A stretch of 64,000 nt of DNA from Dehalococcoidia bacterium (lineage in GTDB: Bacteria; Chloroflexota; Dehalococcoidia; Lucifugimonadales; JADFKI01): NCBI GenBank assembly GCA_965243355.1, contig OZ251547.1, positions 2,596,479-2,660,478 on the forward strand, read 5' to 3'. The notes beneath the pieces were generated by a model that searched no databases, had not been told where the DNA came from, and saw only the letters and a program-made list of their open reading frames with translations. Within the stretch, counting starts at the first letter, position 1, and the number at the start of each line of letters is the position of its first letter. Below are positions 45,784 to 53,828 of this stretch, in pieces. A program made the position numbers and the translations under genes.

Positions 45784-46275
45784 CTAGGCGCGGGCGGCTA
45801 GGCGGGCGTCTATGAGCAGAAGGCCGCTGCCGTCGCCGTCTATCAGCCGGAGCTGGTCGACTATCTCTTCGGCGCTCTTCTCTTCTTCCACCTGCTCGTT
45901 GATGAGCTCGTGCAGCATCACTTGGGCGGCGTAGTCGCTCTCTTCTATGGCGAGCTGGTACATCCGGTTGATGAGGCCGGTTATCTTGCGCTCGTGATCC
46001 AGGGTGCGCTCCATCGCGTCCAGGGCGCTCTGGAAGTCGGCGGGCGGCTGAGGGATAGCCTGCAGCGTGGCGCGGCCGCCGCGGTCGTGGACATAGTCGA
46101 AGAACCGCATCGCATGCGCGGTCTCTTCGGCGTTCTGCAGCCGCATCCAGTGGGCGAAACCGGGCAGGTTCCTGTCCTCAAAGTAGGACGCCATTGACAG
46201 GTAGATGAACGCCGACTCGAACTCGGCGGTTATCTGGTTGTTGAACGACTCTTGCAGTCTGGGACTCAGGTTCAT
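45784..46275 (-). CDS. ftn: Ferritin (non-heme, Ftn-like)
   Basis: LNNQITAEFESAFIYLSMASYF......GFAHWMRLQNAEETAHAMRFFDY contains the ferroxidase-centre residues. Confidence 0.85.
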   Translation of the reverse strand: MNLSPRLQESFNNQITAEFESAFIYLSMASYFEDRNLPGFAHWMRLQNAEETAHAMRFFDYVHDRGGRATLQAIPQPPADFQSALDAMERTLDHERKITGLINRMYQLAIEESDYAAQVMLHELINEQVEEEKSAEEIVDQLRLIDGDGSGLLLIDARLAARA

Positions 46276-46412
46276 CGCGTACTCGTCCTCCTCTTTGTAG
46301 TTGCTTATGGTTATCGCAAGGTTTGGTTATCGCCGCTGAATGTTGCCAAGCGCAACGCGGCTAACATCTATATTTACACCGATTTTGGGGCTAGTCCAGA
46401 TTGAATTAAAAA

Positions 46413-46432
46413 ATTGCGCCATATAGCGCAAT
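46413..46432. promoter_or_regulatory. Palindrome upstream of ferritin (operator candidate)
   Basis: ATTGCGC-catata-GCGCAAT, located 138..157 nt upstream of the ferritin start in an A/T-rich spacer. Confidence 0.3.
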
Positions 46433-46675
46433 CTATGTTTATTGGCGTCATATGAGCGGTTGCGTTGCGCGTAGCGCGATTGGCGGCGATGATGCAAGCG
46501 CGGCTAATAGTTGACATAGGCGGCGTTAAGCGTATATTTAGTTTGCGGCATAGCATTGATTAGCCGATTTTCGCAGCCTGAGACGCGCCGAATTCGGGCG
46601 GTTTTGGGCCGCCGCAATCGGGCGTTATAGGCGCGAATTAGCGGCGCGAATTAGCAGGATAAACAAGGAGAGGCA

Positions 46676-47299
46676 ATGACCACAGAGGCAACGATAAAAA
46701 GCGACGAGGTAGCCATACCGCAGACGGGGACGTCGGTATATGAGGCGATATTCGGGCGGCGGATGACGAAAGAGTTCACGGGCGCGGATGTGCCGCGCGA
46801 GGCGCTGCGGCGCATGCTGGACGCGGCGATATGGGCGCCCAATCACCGCTTGACCAACCCGTGGCGGTTTTTCGCGCTTGAAAGGGGCGGCGCTATGCGC
46901 GAGCGCGTGGCGGATCTGGCGTGGCAAACCGCGTATGAGGCGGTGGCGAACCCGAACCCTGAGCAGAAAAGGTCGTCGGCGGACGCCAGCAAAGCGCGCG
47001 TGCTGAACGCGCCGGCGGCGGTGTATGTGTACAGCGTTCCCGGCCGGGACGACGAGACCACGCAAGAGAACTACGCGTCGGTGTGCTGCGCGGTTCAAAA
47101 TATGGCGCTGGCGGCGGTGGCGGAGGGGCTGGTGGTGGACTGGAGTACGGGCGGCGTGACGCGGCATCCGGACTTGGGCGCGACGCTGGGCGCGGATGCG
47201 GATTGGACGCTGGTGGGGGCGCTGTTCATCGGCGAGCCGCTGAACGCGCCGACTACGCGGCGGAGCGCGACGTCTGAGATAGTGTCTTGGCTGAGCTGA
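46676..47299 (+). CDS. Nitroreductase-family protein
   Basis: RRMTKEF.........L..MLDAAIWAPNHRLTNPWRF is a nitroreductase signature. AAGGAGAGG RBS upstream. Confidence 0.8.
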   Translation: MTTEATIKSDEVAIPQTGTSVYEAIFGRRMTKEFTGADVPREALRRMLDAAIWAPNHRLTNPWRFFALERGGAMRERVADLAWQTAYEAVANPNPEQKRSSADASKARVLNAPAAVYVYSVPGRDDETTQENYASVCCAVQNMALAAVAEGLVVDWSTGGVTRHPDLGATLGADADWTLVGALFIGEPLNAPTTRRSATSEIVSWLS

Positions 47300-47422
47300 G
47301 CGGGTTATGGCGAGTGGGCAAGCAAAGCGAGTGGGCAAGCGCAATGCCCATATCTCATAATCCTGCCATAAGCCCGCAAGGGGAATTAGGCGAGCGAAAC
47401 TAGCGAAACCATAAAGAGGGGA

Positions 47423-47498
47423 TGGTACCCCTGCCCGGACTCGAACCGGGGCACACGGTTTAGGAAACCGTTGCTCTATCCTCCTGAGCTACAGGGGC
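47423..47498 (-). tRNA. tRNA-Arg (anticodon CCT)
   Basis: Manual cloverleaf: acceptor GCCCCTG/CAGGGGT, D stem GCTC/GAGC, anticodon stem ACGGT/ACCGT with loop TTCCTAA, T arm CCCGG-TTCGAGT-CCGGG, and an encoded CCA. Confidence 0.85.
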
Positions 47499-47716
47499 GC
47501 CTGAGGCTATTATACCCTAACGCGGCGCTGGGTTGCACTATTCGCGGCGCGGGTTTCGGGGCAATTGCGGGGGATTTTCGGGCGCGGGATGCCGCGTTTG
47601 GCTGGCGTATTGCCGGGGATATGCGGCGAATTTGGGGAATATGGTTTTCACGGCGCGGTTTATCTGCTATAATCACTTTGTTCGCTGGAGTGGCGATGGC
47701 GCTGAGCGCCGCGTCA

Positions 47717-47793
47717 GGGCGGTTAGCTCAGTTGGTTAGAGCGCTTGCTTCACACGCAAGAGGTCCCAGGTTCAAGTCCTGGACCGCCCACCA
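47717..47793 (+). tRNA. tRNA-Val (anticodon CAC)
   Basis: Acceptor GGGCGGT/ACCGCCC, anticodon stem CTTGC/GCAAG with loop TTCACAC, T loop TTCAAGT, and an encoded CCA. Confidence 0.85.
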
Positions 47794-47845
47794 TAAGGCG
47801 GGCGGCGCGGCTGGGTAATCTGGCCGCGCGAACAAACGGGAATGT

Positions 47846-47932
47846 GCCGAAGTGGCGGAACGGAAGACGCGCTACGTTCAGGGCGTAGTATCCTTTACGG
47901 ATGTGTGGGTTCAAATCCCTCCTTCGGCACCA
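47846..47932 (+). tRNA. tRNA-Leu (anticodon CAG)
   Basis: Acceptor GCCGAAG/CCTTCGGC region, anticodon stem CTACG/CGTAG with loop TTCAGGG, a long variable arm (TATCCTTTACGGATGT), and an encoded CCA. Confidence 0.85.
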
Positions 47933-47962
47933 ACGCAATCGCAATGCCGCCAACCGAAACGT

Positions 47963-48038
47963 GCGCTTGTAGCTCAGTGGATAGAGCGCAGCCCTGCGGA
48001 GGCTGAGGCCGTGGGTTCGAGTCCCGCCAAGCGCGCCA
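47963..48038 (+). tRNA. tRNA-Arg (anticodon GCG by manual fold)
   Basis: Acceptor GCGCTTG/CAAGCGC, D arm GCTC-AGTGGATA-GAGC, anticodon stem CAGCC/GGCTG with loop CTGCGGA, T arm GTGGG-TTCGAGT-CCCGC, and an encoded CCA. Confidence 0.75.
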
Positions 48039-48144
48039 TATGTTTATATCCCCGTAAATCCGCATCGGGCGGCAATGCAACCCCTTAGCCGATCCCCAAA
48101 TCCGCGCATCCAATATCCCGCATGCGCCCGTCGCGTTGCGGCGC

Positions 48145-48221
48145 GGGCGATTAGCTCAGATGGTTAGAGCGTCTGCTTTACACGCAGAAGGTCAGAGGTT
48201 CGAGTCCTCTATCGCCCACCA
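48145..48221 (+). tRNA. tRNA-Val (anticodon TAC)
   Basis: Acceptor GGGCGAT/ATCGCCC, anticodon stem TCTGC/GCAGA with loop TTTACAC, T loop TTCGAGT, and an encoded CCA. Confidence 0.85.
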
Positions 48222-48553
48222 TATTCCCCCGGCGGCGCTTGCGCGATAATCGCCCACCAATCCTATCGCTCACCATATTCCCCACCGGCATCCCCCGACA
48301 CCCCTTGCGCGATCCCCCCCGATTTCACCCGCGCTCGCCGCTCGCGCCCTCTCTATATCCCCTCTTATCTCAGCGTCTTGGCGCGTACATTAGCGCATTT
48401 CTCTTTTCGCATATCAGCGTATCTTAACCCCGCCGCTTATTGAATTCGCAGATGGCGGCTATGATACGATACGCCACGGCGCGTATTATTGCGTGGATTT
48501 GCCTTGCGCGGATGGCGCGCCCACGCCGCAGCGCGAAAGGAGCCTTAGCTAAG

Positions 48554-51040
48554 ATGCGATTTCATCCGACACTCCGCAAATCGCTGATAAACCCGGCGAC
48601 GTTCGCCTCGCTGATAGTCGCGGGGGTGGCGCTGGCGGCGCTGCTGGTCGGGCTGGCGAACATCAACGCGGCAAACGCGCAGGCGCCCGGTTCGTTCACG
48701 GCGATAAGCGGCGGCGTAACGCATACCTGCGCGCTTGACGCGGACGGCGCGGCGACCTGCTGGGGCAGCGACGCCGACGGCGAATCCACGCCGCCGCAGG
48801 GCGAAACTTTCGCGGCGATAAGCGCGGGCGACTCGTTCACCTGCGGCATCCGAAAGGAAGAGGATGGCGAGGCCGGCAAGGCGGTATGCTGGGGCAACGA
48901 CTCTCAGCGGCAGATATGGAATGTGCCGCAGCGGGAAGAGTTCACTGAGATAAGCGCGGGCGCGTTTCATGCGTGCGGCTTGCGCGAGGATGGCAAGGCG
49001 GTCTGCTGGGGCGATAACGACTTTGGGCAGTCCGAGCCGCCCGCGGATGGCGTCTATGTTGAGATAAGCGCGGGCGGCTATCACACATGCGGGCTTGACG
49101 CGGAGGGCAAGGTAACCTGCTGGGGCAGCAACGGCTATGGGCAGACTATCGCGCATCGGGGAGTTTTCAGGTCAATTGACGCGGGCGAGCATCACACCTG
49201 CGCGCTGCGCGATTCGGATATGTTCGCAATCTGCTGGGGCAGGGACAGCCAGGGCAGGACAAGCCCGATAGCGGAGCGGTTCGCGTCCATAAGCGCGGGC
49301 GTGGCGCACGGCTGCGGCTTGCGGTCGGACGGCTTGGTTGTGTGCTGGGGCGACGACAGCCTGGGCCAGTCTCAGCCGCCCGCCGGCGAGCGGTTCGCGG
49401 CGCTGACCGCCGGCGGCTACCACACATGCGGCTTGCGGCACGACGGCAGAGCGGTCTGCTGGGGCTGGAACGGGTCGGGGCAGGCAAGCCCGCCCGCGTC
49501 TATGGCAACGCCTACGCCCACCGCCACATCCGTGCCGACGGTGGGCCTTCCCACCGCAACGCCCACAATCACGCCAATCGCAACATCCACGCCGATAATG
49601 ATAGGGATGCCGAGCGCCGGCGCCAGCATAAGCATCGGCGCGAGCCACGCATGCGGGCTGCGGCAGGACGGCACAATCGTGTGCTGGGGCAGCGATTCGC
49701 AGGGGCAGACAACGCCGCCCGGCGGCAAGTTCGCAACCGTCAGCGGCGGCGATTCCCACGCCTGCGCGCTGCGCGATGACGGCTCTCTAATCTGCTGGGG
49801 CGATAACACATACGGGCAGGCAACGCCGCCCGCAAGCGGCAGATACATCGCCATCAGCAGCCACTCCAACCACACCTGCGGGCTGCGGGATGACGGCTCT
49901 ATAACCTGCTGGGGCGATGACAGATATGGGCAAACCGCGCCGCCTGAAAACGGCAGGTACACGGCGATAAGCAGCGGCGAAACGCTGTCCTGCGCGCTGC
50001 GATATGACGGCGAGCTGGTGTGCTGGGGGACGCGGCAGGACGGCGGGGACATAGCGCCGCCGCCGCCAACGCCGGTTCCCAGCGCAACGCCGCCGCCGAC
50101 CGCCACTCCGGCGCCCGTCGCCACGCCCGCGCCCGCCGCTACCATACCGCAGCGGTTCATCAGCGACTGCTCCAACGGCATAGCGGTCATCTACCCGCTG
50201 GACAACCCGCGATCGGCGCGCGACTGCGCGGCGCTGCTGGCGTCCAAGGCCGTCTTGGAGGGAACCCTGCCCGGCGCGCTGAACTGGTCGCCGTGGATCC
50301 GGATTGACGCTTGGGATGGCGTAACCGTAGCCAGCGTGGACGGATCGCCCAGGATTGTTGAGCTAAACCTAAGCGGCTACGGGCTGGTTGGGCAGGTTCC
50401 TGAGCAGATTAGCCATATGAGCGCGCTCAGGCGGCTTATCCTGGACGACAACGACCTGCATGGCGCGTTGCCGCCGCAGCTGGGCAATATGGGCAGCCTG
50501 GAACGGCTGTCGGTTCAGAACAACGAATTGACGGGCGCATTGCCGCCGCAGCTGGGCAACCTCGCCAACCTGATGTACATATACTTGGGCGGCAACGACC
50601 TGCACGGCGCGCTGCCGCCGCAATTGGGCAACCTGACGGGCTTGCAGACGCTGTCCATCCCGGACAACGGCATAAGCGGCGCGATCCCGCCGCAGCTGGG
50701 CAGGCTGGGCAACCTGGATGTGCTGTCGCTTGGCGGCAACAGCCTGAGCGGGCAGATACCCGCGCAGCTGGGCAACCTGACGAGCCTGCAATGGCTGGGG
50801 CTTGCGAACAACAGCTTGAGCGGGAGCATCCCGCCGGAGCTGGGCGCGCTGAGAAACCTGACGCATCTGTACTTGGATCGCAACGCCCTGAGCGGCGAGA
50901 TACCCGCGCGGCTGAGCAGCCTGGTCAGCCTGCGGCTGCTGCGGCTCGCGGGCAACGACTTCGCGGGCTGCGTTCCGAGCGCGCTGGGGGATGTGGCGGA
51001 TAACGACCTGGCGGAGGTGGGGCTGCCGCTGTGCAACTAG
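48554..51040 (+). CDS. Secreted RCC1-repeat (beta-propeller) protein fused to plant-type LRR domain
   Basis: I place the start at ATG 48554, after a GAAAGGAG RBS. A signal/TM segment is followed by two blocks of about 7 and about 5 RCC1-like repeats (HTCGL..DG...CWG.N..GQ..PP) separated by a T/P linker. After a P-rich linker comes the cap CAALLASKAVLEG...NWSPW....W.GVTV, then about 9 copies of the 24-aa LRR L..L.L..N.L.G.(I/L)PP.LG.L. Confidence 0.8.
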   Translation: MRFHPTLRKSLINPATFASLIVAGVALAALLVGLANINAANAQAPGSFTAISGGVTHTCALDADGAATCWGSDADGESTPPQGETFAAISAGDSFTCGIRKEEDGEAGKAVCWGNDSQRQIWNVPQREEFTEISAGAFHACGLREDGKAVCWGDNDFGQSEPPADGVYVEISAGGYHTCGLDAEGKVTCWGSNGYGQTIAHRGVFRSIDAGEHHTCALRDSDMFAICWGRDSQGRTSPIAERFASISAGVAHGCGLRSDGLVVCWGDDSLGQSQPPAGERFAALTAGGYHTCGLRHDGRAVCWGWNGSGQASPPASMATPTPTATSVPTVGLPTATPTITPIATSTPIMIGMPSAGASISIGASHACGLRQDGTIVCWGSDSQGQTTPPGGKFATVSGGDSHACALRDDGSLICWGDNTYGQATPPASGRYIAISSHSNHTCGLRDDGSITCWGDDRYGQTAPPENGRYTAISSGETLSCALRYDGELVCWGTRQDGGDIAPPPPTPVPSATPPPTATPAPVATPAPAATIPQRFISDCSNGIAVIYPLDNPRSARDCAALLASKAVLEGTLPGALNWSPWIRIDAWDGVTVASVDGSPRIVELNLSGYGLVGQVPEQISHMSALRRLILDDNDLHGALPPQLGNMGSLERLSVQNNELTGALPPQLGNLANLMYIYLGGNDLHGALPPQLGNLTGLQTLSIPDNGISGAIPPQLGRLGNLDVLSLGGNSLSGQIPAQLGNLTSLQWLGLANNSLSGSIPPELGALRNLTHLYLDRNALSGEIPARLSSLVSLRLLRLAGNDFAGCVPSALGDVADNDLAEVGLPLCN

Positions 51041-51197
51041 CGATAGCCTAGCGGCCCGCCGAAAGCCAAACGCAAGCGCTCGCGCAATTTCACGCGGGCG
51101 CTTGTGTGCGTGATGCGCTATTGTGTGCTACAATAACCTCATCGGCGCGGCGGGCCGCCCTCGCCGCGGATAGCATAGCCCAAAGGACGGCATTCCA

Positions 51198-52673
51198 ATG
51201 GCAAGCCCAAACTTCCAAAACCGAACTTTGTTCAAGGGCGATAACCTAGACTTTCTGCGCGGGATGAATAGCGAAACCGTTGATCTTATCGCCACAGATC
51301 CGCCGTTCAACAAGGGCAAGGACTTTCACGCAACGCCGGAGAGCCTGGCGGCGGGGGCGCGCTTTCAAGACAGGTGGACTTGGGATGATGATGTGCAACC
51401 CGAATGGGTTGACGACATTAAAGACGACGAGCCGCGCGTGTATTCGCTGATAAACCACGTGGTAGGCGGCATTGACAACGATCCCAAAACCCGCAAGCGG
51501 CTAGGCGGCCGCGAAGACCTCGCCGCGTTCTTGTGCTTTATGGGCGTAAGGCTGATTGAGATGCGCCGCGTTCTCAAAGACACGGGCAGCCTCTACCTGC
51601 ACTGCGATCCGACCGCCAGCCACTATCTCAAATCGCTGATGGACGCCATATTCGGCGATAAGAACTTTCGCAACGAGATTATCTGGCACTACGGCAAATG
51701 GAGCAACGCCGCCAGGTATTTCCAACGCAACCATGATGTGATCTTGTTCTATTCAAAGAACAACGGCTACACATTCTACAAGCAGTTCAGCGTTTCGGAC
51801 GACAAGCGCAAGAAGTTGGCGATTGGCTACCAAGTCAACCGCCCCAGCGGCGTCAAGCAACTTATCGTGTACGACCGCGATAAGGCGGCGGACAAAATCG
51901 CCGAGGGAAACTACGACGCCGTTGTGTACAGAGACGACGAAAACCCCGGCGCTTTGCTGCACGACACGTGGTCTGACATCAACATCATAAACAGCCAGTC
52001 TCGGGAGCGCATGGGCTACCCAACCCAAAAGCCGCTCGCCCTGTATGAGCGCATTATCAAGGCGTCGTCCAATGAGGGCGATATGGTTCTTGACCCATTC
52101 TGCGGTTGCGCCACCACGCCCATCGCCGCCGAAAGGCTAGGCCGTCAGTGGGTTGGAATGGATCTGTGGGACGGCGCATATGACATCGTTCAAAGGCGCA
52201 TGGAAGACAATCGCCAACTGCTCGCCAACCCTGACGCGCAAATACTCTACACCCAAGACGCGCCTGTTCGCACTGACGGGGGCGAAGACGCGCCCACATT
52301 TGAGTTGCGCCTGAGAAAGCAGCGCCCAAAAGAGCAGTGGCAGAAACTTTCGCACACGCAGATGCGCGAGATACTGATTGACGCGCAGGCGTCGGCAAAT
52401 GGCCTAGTTGATTGCGCCGGATGCGGCCGCAGCCTTGAGGCGGAGTTCATGGAACTTGACCATATCAACCCGCGCGCCCAGGGCGGCGAAAACTGGATTA
52501 CCAACCGCATCCTGCTATGCGGCCCCTGCAACCGCCGCAAGAGCGCGGACTTGACAATAATCGGCTTGCAGAGGCAGAATAAAAGAACGGGTTGGATGCA
52601 CAATCCGCAAATTGCGGACAGCGCGTTGATAAGAGCGAATAAGCGGGCGCAGGAGATTGCGCTAGAGGAATAA
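51198..52673 (+). CDS. DNA methyltransferase (beta-class N6A/N4C, PF01555-like) fused to C-terminal HNH nuclease domain
   Basis: Motif IV TDPPFNKG is N-terminal, and motif I VLDPFCGCATTPIAAERLGRQWVGMDL is C-terminal to it. The protein then continues with CAGCGR...ELDHINPRAQGGENWITNRILLCGPCNRRKS, an HNH His-Me finger with CxxC pairs. Confidence 0.8.
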   Translation: MASPNFQNRTLFKGDNLDFLRGMNSETVDLIATDPPFNKGKDFHATPESLAAGARFQDRWTWDDDVQPEWVDDIKDDEPRVYSLINHVVGGIDNDPKTRKRLGGREDLAAFLCFMGVRLIEMRRVLKDTGSLYLHCDPTASHYLKSLMDAIFGDKNFRNEIIWHYGKWSNAARYFQRNHDVILFYSKNNGYTFYKQFSVSDDKRKKLAIGYQVNRPSGVKQLIVYDRDKAADKIAEGNYDAVVYRDDENPGALLHDTWSDINIINSQSRERMGYPTQKPLALYERIIKASSNEGDMVLDPFCGCATTPIAAERLGRQWVGMDLWDGAYDIVQRRMEDNRQLLANPDAQILYTQDAPVRTDGGEDAPTFELRLRKQRPKEQWQKLSHTQMREILIDAQASANGLVDCAGCGRSLEAEFMELDHINPRAQGGENWITNRILLCGPCNRRKSADLTIIGLQRQNKRTGWMHNPQIADSALIRANKRAQEIALEE

Positions 52674-52687
52674 GTGAGGTTTGAACG

Positions 52688-53647
52688 ATGATGGATTTCT
52701 TTCGGCTTATCGGAAAGCCGTTTTCAGTTGCGGGTGACTTGTTGAGTGCTCGCGCAAAGCCGGGTCTGGCGGCAGCAGGGGATGATAGTGCTTTGAAGAG
52801 GCGAATTAAGTCGCTTATGGAAACCGGAGGTTTGGATTATAAAACAGCACGCCGTCTGGCTGTACAGGAATCATTTCGGGATACATTGCAAGAGAGCGTG
52901 GACCGCGTATTAGACGCCGCGGAGGAAGAGTCTATTTCGCCCGACGACTTTGCGGAACGGCTGAGTGACGGATTTCAAGAAAAGGATTCTGTATCCATGC
53001 ACGTGCTAGACGTGAGTAGATGCAGCACAGCAGATGAACTGCGGTCATTGCTTGGTAAGATACTCGCAAAAGACGTCGACAAGCGTGGTTTGATACATCC
53101 ATCGACGCTGGAAAGCGTTAGAAAGTTGGATGCAGATGCGCTACGATCACTTATCCAGTTGCGAATGATCGCGTGGATCGATACCGATGCCCCGTATTCA
53201 GTGCGATTTTTGGCGACTCCCGTTAAGGACGCATATATCGATGTCAGTCCTTATTCTTGGTTGACCAATTATGCTGGGTTGACCGATATAGAGTGTCTTC
53301 GACTTGAAAATTTGGGGCTAATCTATTTTCAGCCAAGACTTGGCCACATCATGGAAGTCAGCGATGGGGACGTTGAATACGACGAATCGGGCGAGTTGCT
53401 ACGATGCAAAACAGCGCGCCTAAGAAATGGACAGCGGACTCTTGTATTGGAAACGACCGAGACACGGCCGTTGCATATGGGGAATCGTCATTTGACTACT
53501 GAGGGGGCGGAGATACTCGGATTGTACATGGACGAACCTTATACGCCGAGAAGTGGCTACTTCGAGGCTATGTGCGAATTTTGGAAAGAAGAGGGATTTA
53601 TGATCTTAACCGATCCGCAAAGCCCGCAAGCCCCGCTCAAGGAATAG
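52688..53647 (+). CDS. Hypothetical protein, DUF2806-like (tentative)
   Basis: 319 aa, starting 14 nt after the MTase-HNH stop, and visibly A/T-richer than the genome. The segments ADELRSLLGKILAKDVDKRGLIHPSTLESVRKLDADALRSLIQL and GLTDIECLRLENLGLIYFQ resemble my recollection of DUF2806 motifs. Confidence 0.4.
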   Translation: MMDFFRLIGKPFSVAGDLLSARAKPGLAAAGDDSALKRRIKSLMETGGLDYKTARRLAVQESFRDTLQESVDRVLDAAEEESISPDDFAERLSDGFQEKDSVSMHVLDVSRCSTADELRSLLGKILAKDVDKRGLIHPSTLESVRKLDADALRSLIQLRMIAWIDTDAPYSVRFLATPVKDAYIDVSPYSWLTNYAGLTDIECLRLENLGLIYFQPRLGHIMEVSDGDVEYDESGELLRCKTARLRNGQRTLVLETTETRPLHMGNRHLTTEGAEILGLYMDEPYTPRSGYFEAMCEFWKEEGFMILTDPQSPQAPLKE

Positions 53648-53828
53648 CGGCCGAATGGCAACGTTTGACAACTCCAACTAATTCCAAGCCGCCGTTCCCA
53701 ATGCTCCCGATGATGCACGGCGCACCCGAATACATAACGCCCCCAAGCAATTCCCCCCGCGTTTGACTTGCCGCGCCCGCTAGTGGTAATCTCAATGCCA
53801 ACTTTTGGGCAGGCAGGGCAAACTCGCA

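Follow-up and report, generated by a model that had tools for sequence, protein, structure and literature searches.

Type IIC/IIG restriction enzymes such as MmeI, BpuSI, Eco57I and the atypical BtgZI carry a DNA methyltransferase (MTase) and a nuclease in one chain, in which one recognition module could serve both activities, and their specificity diversifies by exchange of such modules. In the Type IIC model, monomers would methylate DNA and the assembled enzyme would cut it (PMC12707154; PMC4081073). Their usual layout is an N-terminal PD-(D/E)XK nuclease with a gamma-class MTase; BtgZI has an alpha-class MTase, placed N-terminally, and a C-terminal nuclease (PMC4081073). Beta-class MTases of Type II and Type III systems, among them MboIIA, RsrI, CcrM and EcoP15I Mod, show the order DPPF, recognition region, FxGxG and have no fused nuclease. 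Among single-gene anti-phage proteins, Abi-alpha (ef2833; family Abi_alpha/DUF4393) of Enterococcus faecalis prophage 6 causes premature lysis (PMC6356687) and is the only Abi_alpha member for which an abortive-infection phenotype as a single gene is known, and the DUF2806 protein Belisama was described from Vibrio chromosomal integron cassettes (bioRxiv 10.1101/2024.07.02.601686). Here we analyzed a 64,000-nt stretch of DNA from a Dehalococcoidia bacterium (assembly GCA_965243355.1, contig OZ251547.1), hereafter the window, which corresponds to G000:C1:2596479-2660478 of its own 3.5-Mb genome, G000. In this window an MTase-HNH fusion gene, open reading frame (ORF) 1, is followed by a DUF2806-like gene, ORF2, and a preliminary description had proposed the pair as a compact two-gene defence module. 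With regard to a new two-gene system our result is mostly negative; what is noteworthy is an uncharacterised MTase-nuclease architecture, its mosaic expansion to 34 copies in one genome, and a very compact defence hot spot.

Both ORFs were confirmed on the forward strand, ORF1 at 51198-52673 and ORF2 at 52688-53647 (positions are those of the window unless a contig is named). ORF1 encodes a 491-aa beta-class N6/N4 DNA MTase with a fused C-terminal HNH nuclease. Its MTase domain (aa 28-332; 51279-52193), defined by Pfam match, motif positions and nearest solved structures, matched N6_N4_Mtase (PF01555) with an E value of 5e-47 and a score of 161.2 bits that passes the cut-off of 26.7. Within the domain, motif IV (TDPPF, aa 33-37; 51294-51308) lies N-terminal to motif I (DPFCGCATT, aa 299-307; 52092-52118) and is separated from it by the recognition region, the arrangement of the beta class, and the solved structures closest to it by sequence are beta-class MTases. 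A linker of about 60 aa leads to the HNH core (aa 406-450; 52413-52547), which passed the cut-offs of both HNH (PF01844; E 1e-9, 38.9 bits, cut-off 21.4) and HNH_5 (31.1 bits, cut-off 27.5). The core is complete, with both CxxC pairs of a zinc-bound nuclease, the D421-H422 pair, N436 and N445 in the arrangement C406xxC409 ... D421-H422 ... N436 ... C441xxC444-N445. The fusion itself, with TDPPF ahead of FCGCATT, and the completeness of its zinc-bound HNH were therefore described correctly from the outset. PADLOC, NCBIfam and PHROGs concur on a Type II/III-like MTase plus HNH, and the only PADLOC models matched by ORF1 were MTase_II and MTase_III.

At the domain level only, ORF1 has the property that defines Type IIC, namely an endonuclease and an MTase in one polypeptide, and it resembles BtgZI in the order of the two. 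It does not show the usual Type IIC layout of an N-terminal PD-(D/E)XK nuclease and a gamma-class NPPY MTase, and differs from the Type IIC/IIG enzymes in its beta-class MTase, its internal recognition region and its C-terminal zinc HNH domain, which is replaced by an Mrr-type nuclease in six paralogues. ORF1 shares fold and motif order with MboIIA, RsrI, CcrM and EcoP15I Mod, but its identity to them is limited to the catalytic motifs. In the literature we found no paper that names the MTase-HNH architecture, and the reviews mention no beta-class MTase-HNH enzyme of Type IIC.

The architecture is strongly expanded in the organism's own genome. G000 contains 57 ORFs with the N6_N4_Mtase-type domain of ORF1; 34 of these are longer than 400 aa and carry DPPF, and every one of the 34 has a C-terminal nuclease, either HNH (28 copies) or a PD-(D/E)XK nuclease of the Mrr_cat type (6 copies). 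Although the HNH-type paralogues have diverged by 40-60%, at least 21 of the 28 have visibly preserved the zinc and catalytic residues of HNH, and the PD-(D/E)XK core (GxD ... QVK) is retained in all six Mrr-type copies. Because two unrelated nuclease folds occur across all 34 long DPPF-type MTases, DNA cleavage appears to be the selected property of the family. Across the genus, the number of matching pieces per genome ranges from 2 to 54, with G000, G007 and G011 expanded. Beyond the genus, the titles of the metagenome-assembled genomes (MAGs) that carry close relatives of ORF1 name Dehalococcoidia (many), Phototrophicaceae, Tepidiformaceae, Caldilineaceae, Candidatus Poribacteria, Rhodothermales, Salinispira and Gammaproteobacteria, and one further relative is titled "Chloroflexota bacterium"; judged from the taxa only, this would be a typical marine-sponge microbiome set. 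Among 50,697 phage and 72,556 plasmid records, matches were limited to the MTase part, and the fusion as such is essentially missing.

The fusions of G000 have near-identical scaffolds and mostly different recognition regions. In ORF1 the variable target-recognition region (about aa 181-270; 51738-52007) is delimited both by a break in DNA homology to the related metagenomic contig L022 and by a drop in identity between paralogues: identity between ORF1 and the copy at 3314887-3316302 is 93-100% for aa 1-150 and 271-480 but falls to 13-26% for about aa 181-270. Among the 25 recognition regions that could be extracted from G000 there was a single near-identical pair (94%), and that of ORF1 is unique within the genome. 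It is, however, common to the non-syntenic loci L019 and L020, and different in the syntenic L022. We infer that cleavage is coupled to methylation specificity, because two nuclease folds attached to one MTase scaffold at a single position, conserved nuclease residues, hypervariable recognition regions and a patchy, species-specific copy number occur together. Four head-to-tail tandem pairs of fusions are present on contig C1 of G000 (2176770-2180266, 3215587-3218847, 3314887-3317793 and 3383872-3386951), and one disrupted copy (2170799-2172353) is broken by a TGA codon or a frameshift. None of the 34 fusion copies has a homopolymer tract of 8 nt or more, either internally or in the 200 nt preceding it.

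ORF2 encodes a protein of 319 aa and starts 14 nt downstream of ORF1, as had been reported. Its resemblance to DUF2806, first noted from motifs, was upheld by profile comparison: HHalign of the ORF2 clade against DUF2806-positive proteins gave 99.7% probability and an E value of 1.8e-25 over aa 45-306 (52820-53605). In an alignment of the 27-member ORF2 family, 18 members match DUF2806 (best E 8.8e-40) and 17 match Abi_alpha, and some relatives score 32-34 bits against Abi_alpha, above its 29-bit cut-off. Furthermore, ORF2, Abi-alpha and Belisama are alike in size (about 270-320 aa), share the central motif (E/D)ELRxLLGKILAxEV..PGS.S..T, and are all found on mobile or variable DNA. On solid sequence homology, ORF2 is thus assigned to the DUF2806/Abi-alpha superfamily as a divergent member. 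It differs from the two characterized proteins in that its clade is very rare and in that ORF2 itself falls below both Pfam thresholds. There were four close homologues among 5.8 billion clustered proteins and 37 matches to the clade profile among 1.84 billion representatives; within the class, the clade is present in 14 of 401 genomes, and ORF2 is single-copy in G000. A search of the clade alignment against 185,579 reference genomes returned no relative apart from the own genome, annotated phages and plasmids gave no match to ORF2, and NCBIfam and PHROGs gave nothing significant. ORF2 and its homologues are conserved along their entire length (48-76% identity), and the GC content of the homologues is about 0.49-0.50 within contexts of 0.62-0.65. 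An AlphaFold model built from a 5-sequence alignment was unusable (predicted local distance difference test, pLDDT, 40); the 27-sequence alignment gave a confident model (pLDDT 84, predicted template-modelling score 0.76). In the predicted protein the N-terminal half is helical and the C-terminal half rich in beta structure, and one predicted phage protein matches this predicted fold with an E value of 1e-10.

DNA homology to the other ORF2 loci defines a tightly bounded cassette. Its start, about 16 nt ahead of the ATG (AAGTGAGGTTTGAACG), directly adjoins the ORF1 stop codon, and its end lies about 10 nt past the ORF2 stop codon. The 14-nt spacer between the two genes (52674-52687), which holds a GAGG ribosome-binding site for ORF2 (GTGAGGTTTGAACG), accordingly belongs to the ORF2 cassette and not to ORF1. 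The same sequence precedes ORF2 homologues on the metagenomic contigs L015 (7252-8945), L016 and L018, where the cassette with its identical 16-nt leader stands behind an unrelated gene with a LON-substrate-binding domain. This identical leader behind the LON-domain gene indicates that a promoter-less ORF2 cassette has been joined to different upstream genes. No recognisable recombination signals were seen at the cassette joins in these three contigs.

Comparison with relatives showed that the interval occupied by the two genes is exchanged for other cargo. L022 follows the window collinearly, at 83-90% DNA identity, with two interruptions, the first (51746-52004) being the ORF1 recognition region and the second (52667-53736) exactly the ORF2 slot. 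It keeps ORF1 with a different recognition domain, and at L022:7467-8798 the ORF2 slot holds an unrelated 443-aa protein, P0126, which has no Pfam or PADLOC match and is a candidate defence gene by position. In the closest reference genome (G026, a Dehalococcoidia MAG) the flanks match the window at about 94% identity; the upstream homology extends as far as 51371, codon 58 of ORF1, and the downstream homology begins at 53754. A complete Type II restriction-modification (R-M) system at L043:4068-6075, consisting of a C5 MTase (E 5e-64) and a restriction endonuclease (PADLOC REase_II, E 5e-100) on the opposite strand, there replaces ORF2 and all but 58 codons of ORF1, leaving a truncated remnant ORF of the MTase-HNH gene. 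The replaceable interval at its largest extent is therefore 51372-53753, the whole of which is the C5-MTase and Type II restriction endonuclease cassette in G026. Between the end of the ORF2 cassette and the resumed homology upstream of the DtxR-family gene lies a spacer specific to G000 (53648-53736, forward strand). In twelve more distant species of the genus, none of these genes precedes the DtxR-family gene.

The interval between the RCC1/LRR gene upstream (RCC1 and leucine-rich repeats) and the DtxR-family gene is thus a small exchange hot spot for defence genes, with three different cargos in three relatives. It resembles defence islands with cassette turnover, in which different defence cargos sit between the same conserved flanks, but it is very small (1-2.4 kb), shows no integrase or attC-like signals, and has one junction exactly at the stop codon of the resident gene and another inside that gene. 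Its foreign composition agrees with the first description, in which ORF2 was said to be richer in A/T and ORF1 intermediate: GC is 0.48-0.51 in ORF2, 0.53-0.59 in ORF1 and 0.63-0.70 in the flanks, compared to a genome mean of 0.61. The pair had been described as bounded by a hairpin after the LRR gene and by the DtxR-family gene, and as lying downstream of a tRNA/att-like region. Neither that region nor the LRR gene is an island border for it: 46000-51745 is collinear with a related genome, and we therefore rejected the tRNA cluster and the att-like repeat as an island border, and place the start of the variable part inside or after ORF1. The hairpin noted 3' of the RCC1/LRR gene exists and exceeds its first description in size (51070-51107, forward strand; 15-bp stem, -32 kcal/mol, z -3.0). 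As part of the conserved flank collinear with L022 and G026, it falls outside the variable islet; it is probably the terminator of the RCC1/LRR gene.

Altogether we consider it probable that ORF1 is a self-contained Type IIC-like R-M enzyme and that ORF2 is a stand-alone cassette of the abortive-infection type residing in a defence hot spot, the two being, as far as context suggests, functionally independent. The recognition region of ORF1 would pick a DNA site, its MTase would mark host DNA at that site, and its HNH domain would nick or cut unmarked DNA, probably after transient dimerisation; recombination among fusion copies would have built the repertoire of specificities in G000. ORF2 would act alone in an abortive-infection-type defence like Abi-alpha and Belisama, as its homology and context suggest, although little of the mechanism of Abi-alpha (premature lysis) can be transferred to it. 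The ORF2 cassette probably borrows transcription from ORF1: promoter and terminator scans of the locus gave nothing above chance, and the 14-nt spacer together with the absence of a terminator between the genes makes co-transcription plausible.

Several observations weigh against this account. On the side of ORF1, 34 active restriction activities would require a 3.5-Mb genome to be fully methylated at many motifs, and some fusion copies may in practice be MTases only. The layout of known Type IIC enzymes, an N-terminal PD-(D/E)XK nuclease with a gamma-class MTase, is a different one (PMC4081073), and our literature search found no biochemical or methylome data for any MTase-HNH family member. 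On the side of ORF2, there was no direct profile match to DUF2806 (PF10987), and the match to Abi_alpha (PF14337) was below threshold (13.7 bits, E 0.065, cut-off 29). PADLOC, whose use had been recommended as a check, recognized the MTase of ORF1 as stated above and returned no significant model for ORF2 (best PDC-S47 at E 0.057). A Foldseek search of the ORF2 model against the PDB found no solved relative (best E 0.9). Finally, DUF2806-family genes adjoin MTase-HNH genes at 2 of about 19 other loci, more than the approximately 1% expected by chance, so that there may be some functional or integrational link between the two gene types.

A bolder reading would make the fusions a new single-chain R-M class with shuffled recognition regions, whose 3' ends are landing sites that capture promoter-less defence cassettes. 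The HNH or Mrr nuclease might itself generate the landing site at the 3' end of the fusion genes, where cassettes like the DUF2806/Abi-alpha gene would be caught and expressed, and the combinatorial restriction repertoire, with recognition regions exchanged among dozens of near-identical scaffolds in one genome, would span Chloroflexota and their community partners. In this full form we regard the proposal as rather unlikely.

The nuclease might instead serve mobility, through homing-like cleavage of unoccupied sites or by promoting recombination and exchange of target-recognition domains, and not restriction, so that ORF1 would be mainly a selfish or mobile orphan MTase. The proteins closest to ORF1 (86-89% identical; L019, L020 and L021) lie in unrelated, non-syntenic contexts in other genomes, the pieces per genome vary from 2 to 54 within one genus, copies form tandem pairs and recombine as mosaics, the ORF1 stop codon is the exact point at which cargo cassettes are joined, and HNH is a common homing-endonuclease fold (PMC4081073). 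However, the copies examined showed no terminal repeats, transposase or integrase, save for L057, where an IS1595-type transposase gene lies upstream of the MTase-HNH gene. ORF1 has moreover been retained vertically at its locus between G000 and L022, and the change from HNH to an Mrr-type restriction nuclease in six paralogues fits restriction better than homing. As a replacement for restriction we think a mobility role improbable; it is nevertheless a serious rival, and since the two roles are not mutually exclusive, it may coexist with restriction.

The compact two-gene module originally proposed holds in one respect, in that defence-type genes occupy a variable spot of foreign composition; the dedicated pairing does not, as each gene has other neighbours, and the slot other cargo, elsewhere. 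In its strict form the proposal makes ORF1 and ORF2 one module, with the DUF2806-like protein as a sensor, regulator or second effector dependent on ORF1. Consistent with this, the genes are 14 nt apart on one strand with no terminator between them, and the two above-chance adjacencies mentioned above include an ORF2 relative, P0127 (35% identical; L057), located 59 nt behind an MTase-HNH gene in the same orientation; the other, in L105, is convergent. Yet the two genes of L057 are separated by a hairpin and its MTase-HNH is frameshifted, the split falling within the recognition region, at a G6...A5 run (L057:2280-2420). L057 and L058 are 100% identical DNA with the same split, likely one sequence recovered twice, and were counted once. 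A further protein, P0128, is not adjacent to an MTase-HNH gene and has a separate MTase/IceA system 1.8 kb off, and an adjacent MTase+HNH ORF was seen at just one (L105) of 14 further DUF2806-family loci in the class, 10 of which have no MTase within 5 kb. The closest homologues of ORF2 (67-76% identical; L015, L016 and L018) stand with the identical leader behind the LON-domain gene and have no MTase-HNH nearby, and the fourth close homologue (L017) has no HNH upstream. Conversely, a DUF2806-family neighbour is lacking at the closest MTase-HNH relatives and at all of about 30 other MTase-HNH loci taken from named genomes and metagenomes, and is present at only 1 of the 34 MTase-nuclease copies in G000; the syntenic L022 keeps ORF1 with an unrelated gene in the slot, and Abi-alpha and Belisama work as single genes. 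Co-occurrence, whose absence had been named as one possible refutation, is thus neither a recurrent conserved pairing nor wholly absent. Because adjacency is above chance yet far from obligatory, it fits loose clustering of the defence-island type and no fixed two-gene system, and a dedicated module is in our view very unlikely.

We also considered ORF2 as the cognate restriction enzyme of ORF1, given that it is a low-GC ORFan replaced together with the target-recognition domain in L022; this was rejected because homologues occur with no MTase within 5-8 kb and because ORF2 belongs with Abi-alpha/DUF2806. Highly improbable, finally, is that ORF1 is an ordinary modification methylase with a regulatory or inactive nuclease and ORF2 a non-defence accessory gene that only distantly shares the Abi-alpha fold: many Type II MTases are orphans (PMC4752239), and ORF2 scores below curated family thresholds and lacks a structural analogue of known function, but the HNH residues and the Mrr-type cores persist across the divergent paralogues in the proportions given above, ORF2 is conserved over its full length, is always compositionally foreign and shares its fold with a predicted phage protein, and its slot holds a Type II R-M system elsewhere.

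The surroundings of other fusion copies, and of the locus itself, yielded further observations. Low-GC neighbours are enriched about 3-fold beside the G000 fusions (9 of 34 compared to a background of 8.5%, p ~0.002, with crude gene calls), and a free HNH protein and a small HEPN protein are among these neighbours. Three low-GC genes on contig C1 (2190880-2191839, 3056057-3056920 and 3425521-3426468) encode AbiJ_NTD4 and/or HEPN domains and are mutually 25-31% identical. Each directly adjoins an MTase-nuclease paralogue of its own, with two of the genes lying upstream and one downstream, and the two of the three that were scanned in PADLOC both match the candidate system PDC-S32. The AbiJ_NTD4/HEPN genes are therefore a second recurrent Abi-type neighbour of the MTase-nuclease fusions. 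Directly 3' of yet another MTase-HNH gene, at 107580-108344 of the same contig, lies a DUF1828/DUF1829 protein that matches PADLOC PDC-M24B (E 8e-103). Next to the locus itself, the RCC1/LRR gene (window 48440-51040) encodes an 866-aa protein with a hydrophobic N-terminal segment and 11 RCC1 repeats followed by leucine-rich repeats, a eukaryote-like repeat type common in host-associated bacteria; in G026 it is conserved (96%).

The locus is a clean minimal example of defence-gene turnover, in which a slot of 1-2.4 kb has three contents in three close relatives. ORF2, for which a confident predicted structure is now at hand, widens the range of the little-understood Abi-alpha/DUF2806 defence superfamily to Chloroflexota. 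If it is true that proteins of the ORF1 type both cut and methylate DNA, they would add an unstudied architecture to the single-chain restriction enzymes. G000 would then provide 34 natural variants, whose 25 comparable recognition regions are nearly all distinct, and its fusions would be both a set from which to learn how beta-class enzymes read DNA and a source of new specificities.

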